Shown here piece by piece: positions 498-27,295 of a DNA stretch of 44,970 bases. The first letter of the stretch is position 1. Each line of letters opens with the position of its first letter. Where the stretch lies: the sequence record NC_047807.1, one strand, 5' to 3'. The stretch comes from Escherichia phage vB_EcoP_C. A program made the translations under genes and the position numbers. The notes under the pieces are model-generated. The model did not search any database. It worked only from the letters and a program-made list of their open reading frames with translations, and was not told the origin of the DNA.

Positions 498-827
498 TTA
501 TTCCTCTTCTCCGCCTTCATACCAAACTACATCGCTGTCATTTGGTACATCATTATAAAGAGCTTCATAGATGCGAGCTTGTAGAATCTTGGTTACATCC
601 TTCGTATCAGGAATCAAACCAGCATCTTCAAAATCAACATCAATGCCATCAGCAGCCATCACAGTAAAGATTTCGCTGTAATAAACTGGCACCATGCTAT
701 CTACAACCTCATGCAGTGCATCAGAGTAATCATCATCTTCACGAATCTCATCGTACTTGATGCGCTCGTTGAATGCTTCAACAGTTGCAGCCAGAAGGTT
801 GTAGTAAGCGTTAGCGTTGCGTTCCAT
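498..827 (-). CDS. ocr: Ocr-like anti-restriction DNA-mimic protein (T7 gp0.3 homologue), 109 aa
   Basis: Highly acidic; recalled similarity to T7 Ocr (IRxDDD...VPxYYSxIFxVMAxxGIDxxFEDxGLxPDTKDVxxILQARIYE); GAGGA SD. Confidence 0.8.
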   Translation of the reverse strand: MERNANAYYNLLAATVEAFNERIKYDEIREDDDYSDALHEVVDSMVPVYYSEIFTVMAADGIDVDFEDAGLIPDTKDVTKILQARIYEALYNDVPNDSDVVWYEGGEEE

Positions 828-921
828 GATTTAATCCTCATTAGTTAGTTAGGTTACATTATAGGGCACTCAAAAGAATACCCTAGGTTTAACCTATCCA
901 GACTAAGAAGCGACTACCCAT

Positions 922-934
922 ATTGTTAAAGAGC
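922..934. repeat. Conserved early-region 13-mer ATTGTTAAAGAGC, copy 1 of 4
   Basis: Exact 13-mer recurs at 922, 1184, 1496 and 2255, each in an early intergenic spacer with a flanking imperfect long hairpin. Confidence 0.6.
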
Positions 935-1002
935 GTGGCTTGTGCCTTGATAGGCTGGCTAGTGCCAGCAACTATCTTATAAGATACTATTCACAAGTTT
1001 AT

Positions 1003-1140
1003 CTATTTAGCATTAATTGCAACCACTTTACTATAAAGTTTATCGTGTTTGCTCTTATCTGTGTTAGCTTGCCAAGCGGCATAAGCAACAGCAAGTTTCT
1101 CTTGCAATGCATCATAGCGTTTACGTTGTGCGTTAGTCAT
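1003..1140 (-). CDS. Small hypothetical protein, 45 aa (below ORF-track size cut-off)
   Basis: Hand translation MTNAQRKRYDALQEKLAVAYAAWQANTDKSKHDKLYSKVVAINAK; AAAGGTGA SD 6 nt upstream of ATG. Confidence 0.45.
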   Translation of the reverse strand: MTNAQRKRYDALQEKLAVAYAAWQANTDKSKHDKLYSKVVAINAK

Positions 1141-1183
1141 GATAGTTCACCTTTGTTAGTAAGCCTATCAAGACACAAACCAG

Positions 1184-1196
1184 ATTGTTAAAGAGC
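1184..1196. repeat. Conserved early-region 13-mer ATTGTTAAAGAGC, copy 2
   Basis: Exact repeat; flanked by CCTATCAAGGCAC / GTGTCTTGATAGG complementary arms (13 bp with one G-U) on the transcribed strand. Confidence 0.6.
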
Positions 1197-1239
1197 TAGG
1201 TTAGTGCCTTGATAGGCCAGCTATTAAGCTGGCTTATTG

Positions 1240-1452
1240 CTACAATTCTCCATCATTCAGTGCTTTAAGCCATCTGTAACCAGTGGCCTTACTCACATTA
1301 AGATACATGTTACAGAAGTCCACGAACTCATCATGTGTTGGCTGTTTGTCTGCCTTATAGTGTGCAAGCAGTACAGCCATCTTCTTGATAATCCGCTTCT
1401 CTTGTTTCTCACGTTCCATGCGTAATTCGTGAGCGATGTCGCAGTAGTTCAT
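1240..1452 (-). CDS. Hypothetical small early protein with HTH-like C-terminus (70 aa)
   Basis: ORF track; TAAGGTGA SD; C-terminal segment VSKATGYRWLKAL resembles a helix-turn-helix. Confidence 0.6.
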   Translation of the reverse strand: MNYCDIAHELRMEREKQEKRIIKKMAVLLAHYKADKQPTHDEFVDFCNMYLNVSKATGYRWLKALNDGEL

Positions 1453-1495
1453 AGTTCACCTTAGTAAGTAGTTAGCCTACCAAGGCACTAGCCAG

Positions 1496-1508
1496 ATTGT
1501 TAAAGAGC
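1496..1508. repeat. Conserved early-region 13-mer ATTGTTAAAGAGC, copy 3
   Basis: Exact repeat in intergenic spacer. Confidence 0.6.
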
Positions 1509-1541
1509 GGGATGTTTAAAGACGTCGCCGTCTTGATGCTT

Positions 1542-1570
1542 AATGTAGCCTTGTATGCCGTGGTTGTCAA
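1542..1570 (-). promoter_or_regulatory. Candidate host sigma70 promoter (TTGACA-17 nt-TACATT on minus strand)
   Basis: Perfect -35 hexamer, 17-nt spacer, -10 TACATT; intergenic; same arrangement as candidate at 2420-2448. Confidence 0.35.
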
Positions 1571-1578
1571 TAGTTAAT

Positions 1579-1803
1579 TTAGAGATTTGTCGTGATTACT
1601 TCATCGTAATCATAATCTTCACTACCTAGATACTCAGTAATGACTTGGTTGTCATACTCAGATACTAAGGTAACTCGGTGATATTCAGTGTCGTAATCTA
1701 TCAAATAGTGATACACATCAACACCTACGCCAGCTTGCATCATATCATCGTGGAAGCGAATAGCTTCGCTAGCTGATTCAAAGAATACCTCATGTTGATA
1801 CAT
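1579..1803 (-). CDS. Hypothetical acidic early protein (74 aa)
   Basis: ORF track; ATG overlaps upstream stop (TAATG); rich in D/E/Y. Confidence 0.6.
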   Translation of the reverse strand: MYQHEVFFESASEAIRFHDDMMQAGVGVDVYHYLIDYDTEYHRVTLVSEYDNQVITEYLGSEDYDYDEVITTNL

Positions 1804-2419: not shown

Positions 2420-2448
2420 AATGTATACCTGTTAACTGCCTATGTCAA
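2420..2448 (-). promoter_or_regulatory. Candidate host sigma70 early promoter (TTGACA-17 nt-TACATT)
   Basis: Consensus -35, 17-nt spacer, -10 TACATT on minus strand in the non-coding region upstream of the early genes. Confidence 0.35.
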
Positions 2449-3430: not shown

Positions 3431-3580
3431 TTACGCAGAAGATGCAGAAGGTTTCTTCATGGTACGACGTTGAACATCCTTGGCAATGGCATAAGCCTGC
3501 TTAGGGTCACGTCCTGATTGAATAAGTTCTTCTGTGTTCTGGAGTACAGCAGCTTGCTTAACTGATTTTATTAGTGGCAT
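3431..3580 (-). CDS. Small basic hypothetical protein (49 aa) overlapping the 3' end of the endosialidase gene
   Basis: Hand translation MPLIKSVKQAAVLQNTEELIQSGRDPKQAYAIAKDVQRRTMKKPSASSA; GAGGA SD. Confidence 0.3.
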   Translation of the reverse strand: MPLIKSVKQAAVLQNTEELIQSGRDPKQAYAIAKDVQRRTMKKPSASSA

Positions 3581-5993
3581 ACATATCCTCTAACTTGTCT
3601 AAACGATAACGAGTATAAGCAGCCTCCAAGATTAAGATTTCACTATATCTAACACCAAACTGACCTTCTTCGAAGGAGACAATGCCGAAGTCGATTGCAT
3701 CTAACCCTTCGGATGCAAAAGCAGCTACAATGTCTTGTGCCAATACACCAAAGTGAGTGTGGTGCACACCACGAGACATCTCACCAATCAACTTGTACTG
3801 CTTGAAGCTAACCTTACCCCATGCCTTTAGTACACTCTCATCAATACCTTGTGATCCATACTTATGAGTGGCATCAGACGTAATAATAGGGTCACTTGTA
3901 AGATGGATAGTAGTGAATCTATTACGAGGGCCTCCAGCAGGATACACGTTATCATTGTATGGCATGATAGCCCCACTTTTGAACAAGTGCTCATTGGCAT
4001 TATATACTGCGCGTCTAGAAGTACTAGAACCTGCTCCATGTAAGGTAATTTGCGCACCGGTATCTGCTGCTGTACCCTCTCCCCCAGAGATGATAACACG
4101 TTGTGCGGTTGGGTTATCCGTTGGTATAGTCTTACCAATGAACCCATATTCACCTTCCATCAGCATCTCTGAGCGAATATTAGCACTTGTACTTGCCTTC
4201 AGGGTAAGGTGTTCGACAGTCATATCTGCGGCAACTACCTCTCCTGATAAGTGAAGTGGAGCAGGAATAGTACGAATACCATCAGTACCCATGAAGGTAG
4301 GTATAGCCTGACCCGGAGTTGCACCATATGTAAACTTACGAGATACACGATTGTCATTTGCAATCTGCATCTTATAGCAGTATATATCAGTGGGGTGTCC
4401 ATGACCTTTAAATGGGTCTTTATCTTTGTTGTCACCATAAGTCATTGGGTTGAAATGGTTTTCTCCACCAAAGATATAGTAAATGTAGCTGTCTTTAACT
4501 ACTACCGAACCTACACCTACACTAGAGTTCACAATGTCACCCTGATAGATTTGGTCTGTGATGTTAACCCATTCAATGTCATCTGCATTCCACTTGTTTA
4601 CATTCAATCGTGCATAGAAGGTACGAGGATAAGATGCCTTGTAACGATCATCTGGTGCACCTGCTTCCCATTCATTTTCTGCACGTTCTGAACCAAACAT
4701 AATAAGGTCATCTCCTACTTTAGCAAAAGGTAAGGTAGTATGATGAACATTATGTGGAAATCTTAGTGACTCCCAAGTTTGACCTATATCTCTACTACGA
4801 TGCAGAGAGCTTCCTAGTCGATCGCCACGAGTACCACGAGTGATAAGGTACAATACACCGTCATAGTACTTGATGCATGGCTCTGCCGCATCTGGTTCAT
4901 ACTCAGATGGTATCTGACGACGAACATAATTAGATGGGCTATTGAAAGCATCAGGGAAGTAGAAAAGCCCAACTTCTCGTGGAGCTACATCACCTTGATG
5001 ATAGCCCATAACAAAGCCATTGTTATCAATAGTAGCAAAGCTATGCACCTCTGTGACACGAGGGATTAGACCAAGATCTGTCTTACGCCAAGGAGATTTA
5101 TGGAAAGAAGTACCCATGTGCCAACTCTTTCCAGCGTTATTCAAATCTGAAGTCTGCTGGTTAGGTGTAAGAACCGTGAAGTTGTCCTTATCTATTACTG
5201 TTGCAACCTTCATATCACCAGATACACCTGTTACCGCAGAGTTAGAGAAGTTAACAAAATCACCAACGAAGAGTCCGTGATCAGGTACATGGATTGTTGC
5301 ATATCTCTGATTTGCAGCCTTAGTGATACCACCAGTAAGATGCAGACTACGAGACATAGGGCGATCCCACAATGCACAATTGGTTAGTGCGTTCTTGGCT
5401 AAAGTACGTGTTTCAATCATGGCAAACAGACGGTTGCGACATACACCCATACTCATACAATGATAGTTCACTGTAGGGTAATCTGGATGCAGATCAGTTA
5501 ACCACTCTGGAGTAGACCATGTTTGACCATCGTCACCAGACTTAACCCATGATACATGCAGACGACTAACACCATGACGGTCGCTACCCATGTAAGGTGC
5601 ATATATCACGTTCTCATATACAAACGCTTTGTCTTGAGGCCAAGCATTGTAATAAGGGTTATCCGTGATTTTATAGAGTTCACCATTGATAAAACCTTTA
5701 CTCACATAGTAAAGAGGTTGACCTGCTAAACGTTCCCATACGAAGCGGGTGTTATAGAATCGCTCCATATCAGGTAAAGATGATACTTTGTAAGTAGCAC
5801 CAGCACCGTCAATTCTCTTACCTGAAGCCATCGCTGCATTTACTGCATCTTGGTCGTTTGTCTTACCATCACCTTTGGCTCCAAAATCTTTAAGCGATAC
5901 AACCTCGGTGAGCTTGTCATCCAAGTTACGCCAGATTGCACCTGCTATTTTACTCTTGAATTTAACTAATGAAGAACCTAGTCTTTGAATCAT
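3558..5993 (-). CDS. Tailspike endosialidase (K1 capsule depolymerase) with C-terminal intramolecular chaperone domain, 811 aa
   Basis: Recalled similarity to phage endo-N-acetylneuraminidases; C-terminal chaperone-like block (...SDATHKYGSQGIDESVLKAWGKVSF...); strong AAGGAGG SD. Confidence 0.85.
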   Translation of the reverse strand: MIQRLGSSLVKFKSKIAGAIWRNLDDKLTEVVSLKDFGAKGDGKTNDQDAVNAAMASGKRIDGAGATYKVSSLPDMERFYNTRFVWERLAGQPLYYVSKGFINGELYKITDNPYYNAWPQDKAFVYENVIYAPYMGSDRHGVSRLHVSWVKSGDDGQTWSTPEWLTDLHPDYPTVNYHCMSMGVCRNRLFAMIETRTLAKNALTNCALWDRPMSRSLHLTGGITKAANQRYATIHVPDHGLFVGDFVNFSNSAVTGVSGDMKVATVIDKDNFTVLTPNQQTSDLNNAGKSWHMGTSFHKSPWRKTDLGLIPRVTEVHSFATIDNNGFVMGYHQGDVAPREVGLFYFPDAFNSPSNYVRRQIPSEYEPDAAEPCIKYYDGVLYLITRGTRGDRLGSSLHRSRDIGQTWESLRFPHNVHHTTLPFAKVGDDLIMFGSERAENEWEAGAPDDRYKASYPRTFYARLNVNKWNADDIEWVNITDQIYQGDIVNSSVGVGSVVVKDSYIYYIFGGENHFNPMTYGDNKDKDPFKGHGHPTDIYCYKMQIANDNRVSRKFTYGATPGQAIPTFMGTDGIRTIPAPLHLSGEVVAADMTVEHLTLKASTSANIRSEMLMEGEYGFIGKTIPTDNPTAQRVIISGGEGTAADTGAQITLHGAGSSTSRRAVYNANEHLFKSGAIMPYNDNVYPAGGPRNRFTTIHLTSDPIITSDATHKYGSQGIDESVLKAWGKVSFKQYKLIGEMSRGVHHTHFGVLAQDIVAAFASEGLDAIDFGIVSFEEGQFGVRYSEILILEAAYTRYRLDKLEDMYATNKIS

Positions 5994-27079: not shown

Positions 27080-27295
27080 TCAAATGAAATCGTCGGTTTC
27101 TTCTTCGTCTGTACCATAGAGTTCTTCAACCTTCTCTTGGATAGCTTCTACAGAAAGACCAAGCTCTTCTGCATCAGCTAGTAAGGTATATGGCACTTCC
27201 ATGCCACAGGATAAAGTTTCAAAGATAGCTTCTGCTACCTCAACTGCACGAGTTGCCTTCATGCTATCAAAAGAAATCTGGTTCATCTTTGTCAT
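27080..27295 (-). CDS. Small acidic protein (71 aa) with acidic C-terminus ...EEETDDFI
   Basis: ORF track; GGAG SD; strongly acidic. Confidence 0.5.
   Translation of the reverse strand: MTKMNQISFDSMKATRAVEVAEAIFETLSCGMEVPYTLLADAEELGLSVEAIQEKVEELYGTDEEETDDFI

Follow-up and report, generated by a model that had tools for sequence, protein, structure and literature searches.

An acidic early protein encoded upstream of Ocr in a K1E-like phage: predicted ferredoxin-like fold, clade-specific charge and a possible decoy role

The early region of Escherichia phage vB_EcoP_C encodes an Ocr homologue and, upstream of it, a very acidic 74-aa protein whose family is encoded early and conserved among SP6-like phages. 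We analyzed positions 498-1803 and the adjoining genes in the phage sequence NC_047807.1 (44,970 nucleotides, hereafter the window). According to a structural model, the 74-aa protein is predicted to be a folded, ferredoxin-like β-α-β-β-α-β domain and not disordered. When the family sequences are compared, strong acidity is not a trait of the whole family; its conservation is confined to the K1E-type clade. For the reading as a whole, i.e., Ocr as assigned plus the mode of action proposed below for the 74-aa protein, we see an even chance.

Region 498-1803 has 100% identity to Escherichia phages vB_EcoP_R and vB_EcoP_D. The window is a Vectrevirus genome in rotated and reverse-complemented orientation, and its genes discussed here are all on the minus strand. 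The region is best explained as the leftmost early region of a K1E-like phage (Vectrevirus, SP6-like group) that is transcribed by the host RNA polymerase. The operon begins with a 75-aa gene (R_39, 1969-2196), annotated to date as a hypothetical protein, which matches phrog_19860 at 1.4e-48 over residues 15-89 of an 89-aa ORF. It is followed by a 59-aa SP6 gp3-like gene (1803-1982; phrog_9275 at 2.9e-40, from residue 4 of a 62-aa ORF) and by the 74-aa gene of the K1E gp2/SP6 gp4 family (1579-1803; phrog_6403 at 2.2e-29). The stop codon of the 59-aa gene overlaps the start codon of the 74-aa gene (TAATG), which suggests from the sequence that the two are translationally coupled. Two ORFs lie between the 74-aa gene and the Ocr gene, i.e., a 70-aa gene corresponding to K1E gp2.5 (1240-1452; phrog_26099 at 3.9e-54), with a weak helix-turn-helix hint below the cut-off (Pfam HTH_23, E=0.011), and a 45-aa basic gene corresponding to K1E gp2.8 (1003-1140; phrog_16783 at 9.6e-34; pI 9.8). 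A preliminary description of this DNA had placed the 74-aa protein two genes upstream of Ocr, and this position is hence correct. Both ORFs have good ribosome-binding sites, GGAGGG ahead of the 74-aa ATG and GAGGA ahead of the Ocr ATG, and both are kept intact across dozens of phage genomes.

A candidate sigma-70-like promoter, TTGACA-17-TACATT, is found upstream of the 75/59/74-aa operon (2420-2448, minus strand; 10 of 12 consensus positions), and a second candidate with identical hexamers lies directly after the 74-aa stop codon (1542-1570, minus strand); both are consensus matches only, and such sites are no more numerous in the region than expected by chance. The intergenic spaces carry repeats. 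One repeat unit is located upstream of ocr (895-961, minus strand), and further copies were found at 1157-1223, 1469-1508 and 2228-2267. The repeats were detected as the direct-repeat families D1-D3 and as the hairpin I3, which has its arms at 1163-1181 and 1199-1217. Moreover, a perfect 14-nt inverted repeat brackets the first operon, with its arms at 1552-1565 and 2224-2237. A chance occurrence in the window is unlikely, and K1E has one copy only.

The 109-aa early protein (498-827, minus strand), which corresponds to K1E gene 3 and vB_EcoP_R gene R_34, is almost certainly a true Ocr, as the preliminary description had stated. Matches to Pfam, PHROG and PDB chains agree on this. It reached 108.9 bits with Pfam PF08684 (cut-off 25, E=2e-31, profile positions 5-97 of 101), 3e-51 with PHROG 2568 ('ocr-like anti-restriction') and E=7e-28 with the T7 gp0.3 PDB chains 1s7z/2y7c, where residues 7-102 align on residues 7-102. 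Identity to T7 gp0.3 is 53% over 92 aa without gaps, with 73% positives. The protein contains 28 D/E versus 7 K/R and 9 Tyr (net charge -21, pI 4.05), and its negative charge density ranks third (-0.193 per residue) among 58 non-overlapping ORFs of the minus strand that encode 40 aa or more. Its gene is syntenic with K1E gene 3, SP6 gp5 and LL11 gp06, each upstream of the RNA polymerase gene. Across five different Molineuxvirinae genomes the net charge is kept at -20 to -28, with -22 in F5M1D, -21 in contig L004, -28 in SP6 and -20 in LL11. By homology to T7 gp0.3, the protein would dimerise into an acidic body shaped like DNA and fill the sites at which type I restriction-modification enzymes and BREX bind DNA. 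The dimer is probably all-α and banana-shaped, mimicking about 24 bp of bent DNA, and the protein would thus have anti-restriction and anti-BREX activity. The Ocr gene as such adds nothing new, because the identical GenBank record already reads 'DNA mimic ocr' and K1E gene 3 is annotated 'ocr-like anti-restriction'.

The sequence of K1E gp2 matches that of the 74-aa protein fully (100% identity), and the K1-5 gene 2 product shares 98.6% identity with it. The 74-aa protein had been described as extremely acidic and rich in aromatic residues, and we confirmed this. There are 17 D/E (23%) versus 2 R and no K, giving a net charge of -15 and a pI of 4.05, and 9 of the 12 aromatic residues are Tyr. 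Since the protein ranks first in negative charge density (-0.203 per residue) among the 58 ORFs, its acidity is a real outlier. We found no Pfam or NCBIfam match for the protein, nor a Pfam match for any of 14 members of its family, and neither these databases nor PHROG provide a functional label. A literature search, including a sequence-motif search of full texts and supplementary data, returned nothing on K1E gp2 or SP6 gp4, and no binding partner, phenotype or published study of the protein. JSS1_004, a candidate from the literature, was rejected as it is a T7 gp0.7-type kinase.

The ORF is intact at constant length in 63 phage records and at least 48 protein clusters; the 48 clusters formed at 90% identity all consist of 74-aa proteins that are 66-97% identical to the one in the window. 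Within the K1E-type clade identity thus falls to 66%, outside it to about 27-38%. All homologues that we found came from Molineuxvirinae records or from podovirus contigs about 44-46 kb long. In K1E, K1-5, SP6, LL11, phD2B and metagenomic contigs, their gene is located close to the left end, at a distance of about 1-2 kb. SP6 gp4 is a distant homologue encoded directly upstream of the SP6 ocr-like gp5; the family occurs also in a phage with a SAM hydrolase in Ocr's place. A profile search of 1.84 billion representative proteins yielded nine matches at E<=0.001, from which three further relatives were taken; one of these, 190 aa long, carries the domain at its C-terminus. We assumed that matches in several stretches of proteins of 321-1219 aa reflect an effect of PPR-type repeats, and no cellular relatives were identified in this protein set. 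A 140-aa 'duplicated' gene 2 in Vectrevirus LF31P3 was discarded as a homopolymer (poly-C) assembly artefact.

In an alignment of 14 family members, H4, E5, L59, V69, I70 and T71 are invariant. SP6 gp4 has HT for HE and LL11 gp04 has EEVNS for EEVIT, and the family motifs are therefore less strict than this alignment implies. Net charge varies widely in the family, from +1 to -15, with pI values of 4.05-8.05. Proteins of the K1E-type clade (74 aa) have net charges of -9 to -15, SP6 gp4 (69 aa) has -7, LL11 gp04 has -1 (pI 6.3), and the versions of Klebsiella and Lelliottia phages range from +1 to -3. Any function shared by descent should hence be independent of strong negative charge. Inside the K1E-type clade, at least 36 of 45 sequences have an acidic residue at 16 of the 17 acidic positions of the 74-aa protein. 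Loop 60-65 is the near-invariant SEDYDY, with a mean major-residue frequency of 0.98 in this clade.

The AlphaFold2 model of the 74-aa protein has a pLDDT of 79 and a pTM of 0.66, with no segment below 50. DSSP assigned strands to residues 2-8, 27-34, 40-48 and 66-73 and helices to residues 11-23 and 52-59. In BFVD, homologues encoded by phages of Citrobacter, Pectobacterium and Proteus have the same predicted fold (TM-scores 0.76-0.83). The model thus speaks against disorder, which the preliminary description would have counted against a mimic. Among the best 50 Foldseek matches of the model in the PDB were PII, CutA, S6, IsdG and designed proteins, and known DNA mimics were absent from these 50. 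The ferredoxin-like fold is generic and without functional information. PDB sequence and profile searches found no solved homologue, only artefacts with pentatricopeptide repeat (PPR) proteins. PPR kinship was rejected, although the E-values with designer pentatricopeptide proteins were as low as 2e-17. Residues 12-33, i.e., 22 residues modelled as a helix followed by a strand, match every repeat with about 2.5 bits and a per-stretch E above 1000, and the whole-sequence E-value is low because some ten such sub-threshold matches are summed. Ocr paralogy of the 74-aa protein was likewise rejected (BLASTP E=2.6).

From its composition alone, the 74-aa protein had been proposed as a second nucleic-acid mimic. 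As a genuine mimic in the manner of Ocr or ArdA, the protein would imitate the phosphates of DNA with its surface carboxylates and block a different DNA-binding enzyme of the defence or the host. The composition stood up: with its pI of 4.05, 23% D/E and lack of lysine, the protein has the top negative charge density of the proteome, and its acidic positions are conserved in the K1E-type clade. The gene shares the early block with an anti-restriction gene in all relatives examined and, judging by gene order, would be expressed ahead of Ocr from the first operon. Likeness to Ocr, a solved homologue, a match to known mimics in sequence or fold and a family-wide charge did not emerge, however, and a globular monomer of 74 residues is small for an extended DNA-like array. 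Syntenic homologues are near neutral in LL11 and in the Klebsiella and Lelliottia phages, whereas Ocr stays at -20 to -28 there. Because charge varies in this way across the family while that of Ocr is steady, the second-mimic idea is unproven and contradicted at the family level, and we consider it unlikely. We give about the same low weight to a two-protein early module, in which the 74-aa protein would pair with the upstream 59-aa protein, e.g., with one of the two as a conserved effector and the other as a fast-evolving adaptor or specificity subunit. The overlapping stop and start codons in the window fit such a pair, and the two genes adjoin in K1-5, SP6, LL11 and Klebsiella and Salmonella phages. 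Moreover, tblastn detected the 59-aa gene in 100 phage records with 56-100% identity, its end sitting just ahead of a gp2/gp4-like gene in most of them; the 74-aa family diverges further, to the 27-38% given above. Yet an extra ORF separates both genes in K1E and vB_EcoP_B, phD2B has an unrelated 91-aa gene upstream, and in VLCpiA2a and contig L004 the space from the tail gene to the homologue lacks any annotated or called gene.

Much less probable is that the protein oligomerises like PII/CutA and binds a small molecule or metal, e.g., as a sponge for a nucleotide immune signal. The best PDB folds were indeed PII/GlnK, CutA1, the c-di-AMP binder PstA and SbtB, with query-normalised TM-scores of 0.6-0.72, and strands β1 and β4, which lie next to each other, carry a conserved histidine and conserved acidic residues. 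E-values were only about 4e-4 to 5e-3 at 8-18% identity, though, for a fold that is among the commonest known. With 74 aa compared with about 112 aa for PII, there is no space for T- and B-loops, conserved basic residues to hold a nucleotide are lacking, a net charge of -15 would repel nucleotides, and Pfam gave no match. We hence rejected membership in PII/CutA as a generic fold resemblance only. That the ORF is non-functional, with a composition that is accidental in an AT-rich early region, could be argued only from its small size and absent annotation. This is effectively refuted, since its length is constant in the 63 records and at least 48 clusters despite amino-acid divergence, its ribosome-binding site is strong and a fold is confidently predicted.

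For the 74-aa protein we propose, at slightly less than even odds, that it is a folded binder and inhibitor acting as a local electrostatic decoy. Its gene would be the third of the first operon to be expressed, yielding a product separate from and unrelated to Ocr. The protein would bind a host protein stoichiometrically and inhibit it, in host takeover or counter-defence. For docking it may use two conserved features, M-x-x-H-E-I/V-F/Y in the N-terminal strand and the aromatic-acidic motif (Y/F)-(D/E)-(D/E)-V-I-T at the C-terminus. Proteins of the K1E-type clade would in addition have gained a polyanionic surface that is conserved and includes the loop SEDYDY; judged from the fold topology and not from a computed surface, it may cluster at a single pole. 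This would favour binding to the target at a basic site, probably one that contacts nucleic acids, so that the protein would be a local decoy and not an extended B-DNA mimic like Ocr. Because the charge is conserved within the K1E-type clade, a clade-specific electrostatic role is possible. A bolder version of this proposal, which we rate as doubtful and a little below the rival DNA-mimic reading, is that K1E-type gp2 represents a structurally new type of polyanionic decoy, with a ferredoxin-like domain as its scaffold. Its ancestor, of the SP6 gp4/LL11 gp04 type, would have been near neutral and have gained about a dozen conserved carboxylates within Vectrevirus. The decoy would neutralise a nucleic-acid-binding defence or host factor beyond the reach of Ocr.

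About a hundred SP6-like phages carry the family, and several of these are candidates for phage therapy against K1 E. coli, Klebsiella and Salmonella. Once the genome has entered the cell, the gene is one of the earliest to be expressed. Should the acidic K1E-type version inhibit a host defence or nucleic-acid-binding protein, it would add a new fold to the phage decoy proteins, and decoy evolution could be studied with its neutral relatives as natural controls. If it is a polyanionic decoy, the family would offer a natural series from net -1 to -15 on how nucleic-acid mimicry arises. As things stand, the 74-aa protein is a candidate that deserves a cheap screen, not a discovery.

DNA mimics such as ArdA, Ugi, T4 Arn, T7 gp5.9 and phi29 p56 are small, D/E-rich proteins with a pI of about 4 that phages express early. 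The 74-aa protein resembles them in size, pI, composition and as an early gene, but differs in that its sequence matches no solved structure and that its charge is not family-wide. With the PII, GlnK and CutA1 trimers, its best PDB fold matches, it shares the predicted β-α-β-β-α-β core. It is shorter, however (74 aa versus about 90-112 aa), only 8-18% identical, and has neither a T-loop nor a Pfam P-II match. The 109-aa protein is much closer to its prototype. Like T7 gp0.3 Ocr (PF08684; PDB 1S7Z), it has a pI of about 4 and an early-region position, and it passes the Pfam gathering score fourfold. It differs from T7 Ocr in length (109 aa versus 117 aa), in a shorter acidic C-terminal tail (GGEEE) and in its N-terminus (MERNANAYY versus MAMSNMTY), and a more T7-like variant is found in sister Vectrevirus phages, e.g., LL11 and LF31P3.

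The first 3600 nucleotides of the window were identical (100%) to Escherichia phages vB_EcoP_R (KY295899) and vB_EcoP_D in a megablast search, and showed about 94–96% identity with K1E and further Vectrevirus phages, which belong to the SP6-like group of the Molineuxvirinae (Autographiviridae). Compared with the K1E reference, the record is rotated and reverse-complemented; the right genome end is marked by an 811-aa tail-spike ORF (3558–5993), which the matching record labels "endosialidase", and the early genes occupy the minus strand, starting near position 2450 and continuing down to position 1. A candidate promoter, TTGACA-17-TACATT (2448–2420, minus strand), lies ahead of three minus-strand genes with zero intergenic space, i.e., a 75-aa gene (2196–1969), a 59-aa SP6 gp3-like gene (1982–1803, phrog_9275) and the 74-aa gene (1803–1579), the ATG of which overlaps the preceding stop codon (TAATG) and is served by the ribosome binding site GGAGGG. 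A second candidate promoter with the same hexamers follows directly after the 74-aa gene (1570–1542, minus strand). In line with the preliminary description, two further ORFs separate the 74-aa gene from the 109-aa ORF (498–827, Pfam ocr), namely those for 70 aa (K1E gp2.5, 1240–1452) and 45 aa (K1E gp2.8, 1003–1140), all on the minus strand. C-terminal residues 51–68 of the gp2.5-like protein hint at a helix-turn-helix, with a match below the cut-off (Pfam HTH_23, E = 0.011), and its gene is missing from the Vectrevirus phages LF31P3 and LL11.

The early region also contains repeats. A conserved intergenic unit, ...GCTCTTTAACAAT(C/A/T)TGG... as read on the minus strand, was found at 895–961, 1157–1223, 1469–1508 and 2228–2267, with copies preceding genes 1, 2.5, 2.8 and ocr; one of them forms a 19-bp hairpin (arms 1163–1181 and 1199–1217, 17-nt loop). 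By analogy with T7 early transcripts, these units could serve as leaders of early mRNAs or as sites of RNase III processing. The first three-gene operon is flanked by a perfect 14-nt inverted repeat (1552–1565 and 2224–2237), one arm of which falls in the gene 1 leader and the second in the spacer of the candidate promoter that follows the 74-aa gene. In 100 shuffles, two matches of this repeat never occurred. K1E has a single copy, and the inverted repeat is therefore probably lineage-specific or a recombination scar.

Residue counts bore out the acidic composition claimed for both early proteins, with 28 D/E against 7 K/R in the 109-aa Ocr (net −21, pI 4.05) and 17 D/E against two R and no K in the 74-aa protein (net −15, nine Tyr, pI 4.05). 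By negative charge density, the 74-aa protein ranked first and Ocr third among 58 minus-strand ORFs. The second rank went to another small and very acidic ORF (71 aa, 27080–27295, minus strand, net −14) located mid-genome, outside the early region; it matched phrog_5860, a family without assigned function, and had zero Pfam matches.

The 74-aa protein matches K1E gp2 at 100% identity and the product of K1-5 gene 2 at 98.6%. It belongs to phrog_6403, which carries no functional label, and had zero matches in Pfam and NCBIfam. A word-indexed search across 5.8 billion proteins yielded 46 clusters at 66–97% identity, all of 74 aa save one truncated 54-aa entry, on contigs of up to about 44–46 kb and on many short fragments. 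Among 1.84 billion representatives, an exhaustive HMM search picked out nine proteins at E ≤ 0.001, of which three were accepted as further relatives; multi-stretch matches in proteins of 321–1219 aa were left out as assumed repeat artefacts. The profile extended with these three brought the total to 64 clusters, nameless or labeled "hypothetical", "uncharacterized" or "unknown function", the long contigs again measuring about 44–46 kb. With two distant members as tblastn queries, this gp2/gp4 family was located in 79–85 records of phages infecting Escherichia, Salmonella (including SP6 gp4), Klebsiella, Citrobacter, Pectobacterium, Lelliottia and Raoultella. We found no publication on the family in the literature.

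The gene kept a constant position, lying 1–2 kb in from the left end and upstream of an anti-restriction gene. The latter is Ocr in K1E, SP6, LL11, F5M1D and contig L004; in Lelliottia phage phD2B it is a putative SAM hydrolase. From this constant position we conclude that the 74-aa gene is an early gene conserved in SP6-like phages and independent of Ocr; a spurious ORF was excluded. The ocr slot of K1E and SP6 holds the putative SAM hydrolase in phD2B (L008, 1720–2136) and an unannotated 172-aa protein in Klebsiella phage VLCpiA2a (L010, 3545–4063); the anti-restriction slot appears exchangeable, with the gp2/gp4-like gene staying put. In a 190-aa protein of a metagenomic contig (P0051; L007, 422–994), the C-terminal 73 residues make up the gp2/gp4-like domain and the N-terminal part is unrelated; either the two parts are naturally fused or the start may have been called wrongly. 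A 140-aa gene 2 ORF with a polyproline tract in LF31P3 (L011, OZ035776.1, 1513–1935) was rejected as an assembly artefact: within gene 2, the public assembly has part of the sequence duplicated and a long run of poly-C/poly-G, which together create the false ORF.

An AlphaFold2 model from a 45-sequence alignment (pLDDT 79, pTM 0.66, every segment at least 50) predicts the order strand, helix, strand, strand, helix, strand, i.e., a ferredoxin-like fold. Disorder, named beforehand as speaking against the proposal of a second nucleic-acid mimic, is hence not what the model predicts. Foldseek against BFVD matched uncharacterised 69–74-aa proteins (TM-scores 0.76–0.83) of Citrobacter phage CrRp3, Pectobacterium phage PP1 and Proteus phage PM116. 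CrRp3 and PP1 were also among the tblastn matches, and the predicted fold is therefore common to the gp2/gp4 family. Kinship with PPR proteins was dismissed, as PDB sequence searches gave designer PPR proteins only, via a repeat-summing artefact.

A DNA mimic is expected to keep its charge; to judge from the sequences compared, Ocr does and the gp2/gp4 family does not. Ocr orthologues in four other Molineuxvirinae genomes have net charges of −20 to −28. In the gp2/gp4 family, values run from −9 to −15 (pI 4.05–4.57) in the K1E-type clade (48 clusters), −7 (pI 4.45) in SP6 gp4 and −6 to −9 (pI 4.44–4.70) in CrRp3-like proteins to −1 (pI 6.26) in gp04 of the E. coli-infecting Vectrevirus LL11 and +1 to −3 (pI 5.4–8.05) in ten clusters of Klebsiella/Lelliottia-phage type. 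The wider family alignment shows conservation of L59, of an N-terminal strand with the pattern M-x-x-H-E-(I/V)-(F/Y) and of a C-terminal (Y/F)-(D/E)-(D/E)-V-I-T; SP6 gp4 and LL11 gp04 depart to some extent even from this. Within the K1E-type clade the charge does not drift: 16 of 17 acidic positions carry an acidic residue in 36 or more of the 45 sequences. Here, the N-terminal half is more variable than the C-terminal half (mean major-residue frequency 0.77 versus 0.95), and loop S-E-D-Y-D-Y (60–65; 0.98) and strand β4 (0.96) are near-invariant. The β1-α1 loop (E9), the β2-β3 hairpin (D36, D38, E40) and the α2-β4 loop (E62, D63, D65) would come together at one pole of the fold. This suggests, from the ferredoxin-like topology and not from computed coordinates, a concentrated acidic and aromatic patch rather than an extended array.

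The most economical reading is a small folded early protein-binding factor, on which the K1E-type lineage has gained and kept a polyanionic surface; this would suit attachment to a basic site, possibly one that binds nucleic acid. The second mimic was a guess based on composition. Charge retention within the K1E-type clade lends it some support, but the comparative charge evidence is against it at the family level; the 74-aa protein had zero similarity to Ocr, and known DNA mimics were absent from the 50 best Foldseek PDB matches. A true Ocr-like DNA mimic is conceivable for the K1E-type clade only, and there improbable. These PDB matches were generic ferredoxin-like proteins (PII/GlnK, CutA1, PstA, SbtB, ribosomal protein S6, IsdG, designed proteins) at E-values of 4e-4 or weaker and 8–18% identity, and a PII-like small-molecule binder is very unlikely. 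Joint action with the 59-aa neighbor is a reasonable rival to which we assign a low probability. With 56–100% identity across 100 Molineuxvirinae records, the 59-aa protein is better conserved than its neighbors and far above the 74-aa family, whose distant members share about 27–38% identity. In most genomes the 59-aa gene terminates only a few bases ahead of the gp2/gp4-like one, and the two would usually be translationally coupled. An additional ORF separates them in K1E and vB_EcoP_B, and some gp2/gp4-carrying relatives are without the 59-aa gene. As a candidate for an anti-defence screen, the 74-aa protein would cost little to try.

The assignment of the 109-aa protein as an Ocr homologue was right. 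It matched Pfam ocr with 108.9 bits (cut-off 25, E = 2e-31), PHROG 2568 "ocr-like anti-restriction" (3e-51) and the T7 gp0.3 chains of 1S7Z/2Y7C (7e-28). This identity is already known and adds nothing new, the protein being labeled "DNA mimic ocr" in an identical GenBank record and "ocr-like anti-restriction" for K1E gene 3. Anti-restriction and anti-BREX activity would follow by analogy from the T7 literature, of which PMC7064336 (on Ocr) and Isaev et al. 2020, as cited by another source, are examples. T7 gp0.3 and the 109-aa protein share 53% identity and 73% positives in a gap-free alignment over 92 residues.
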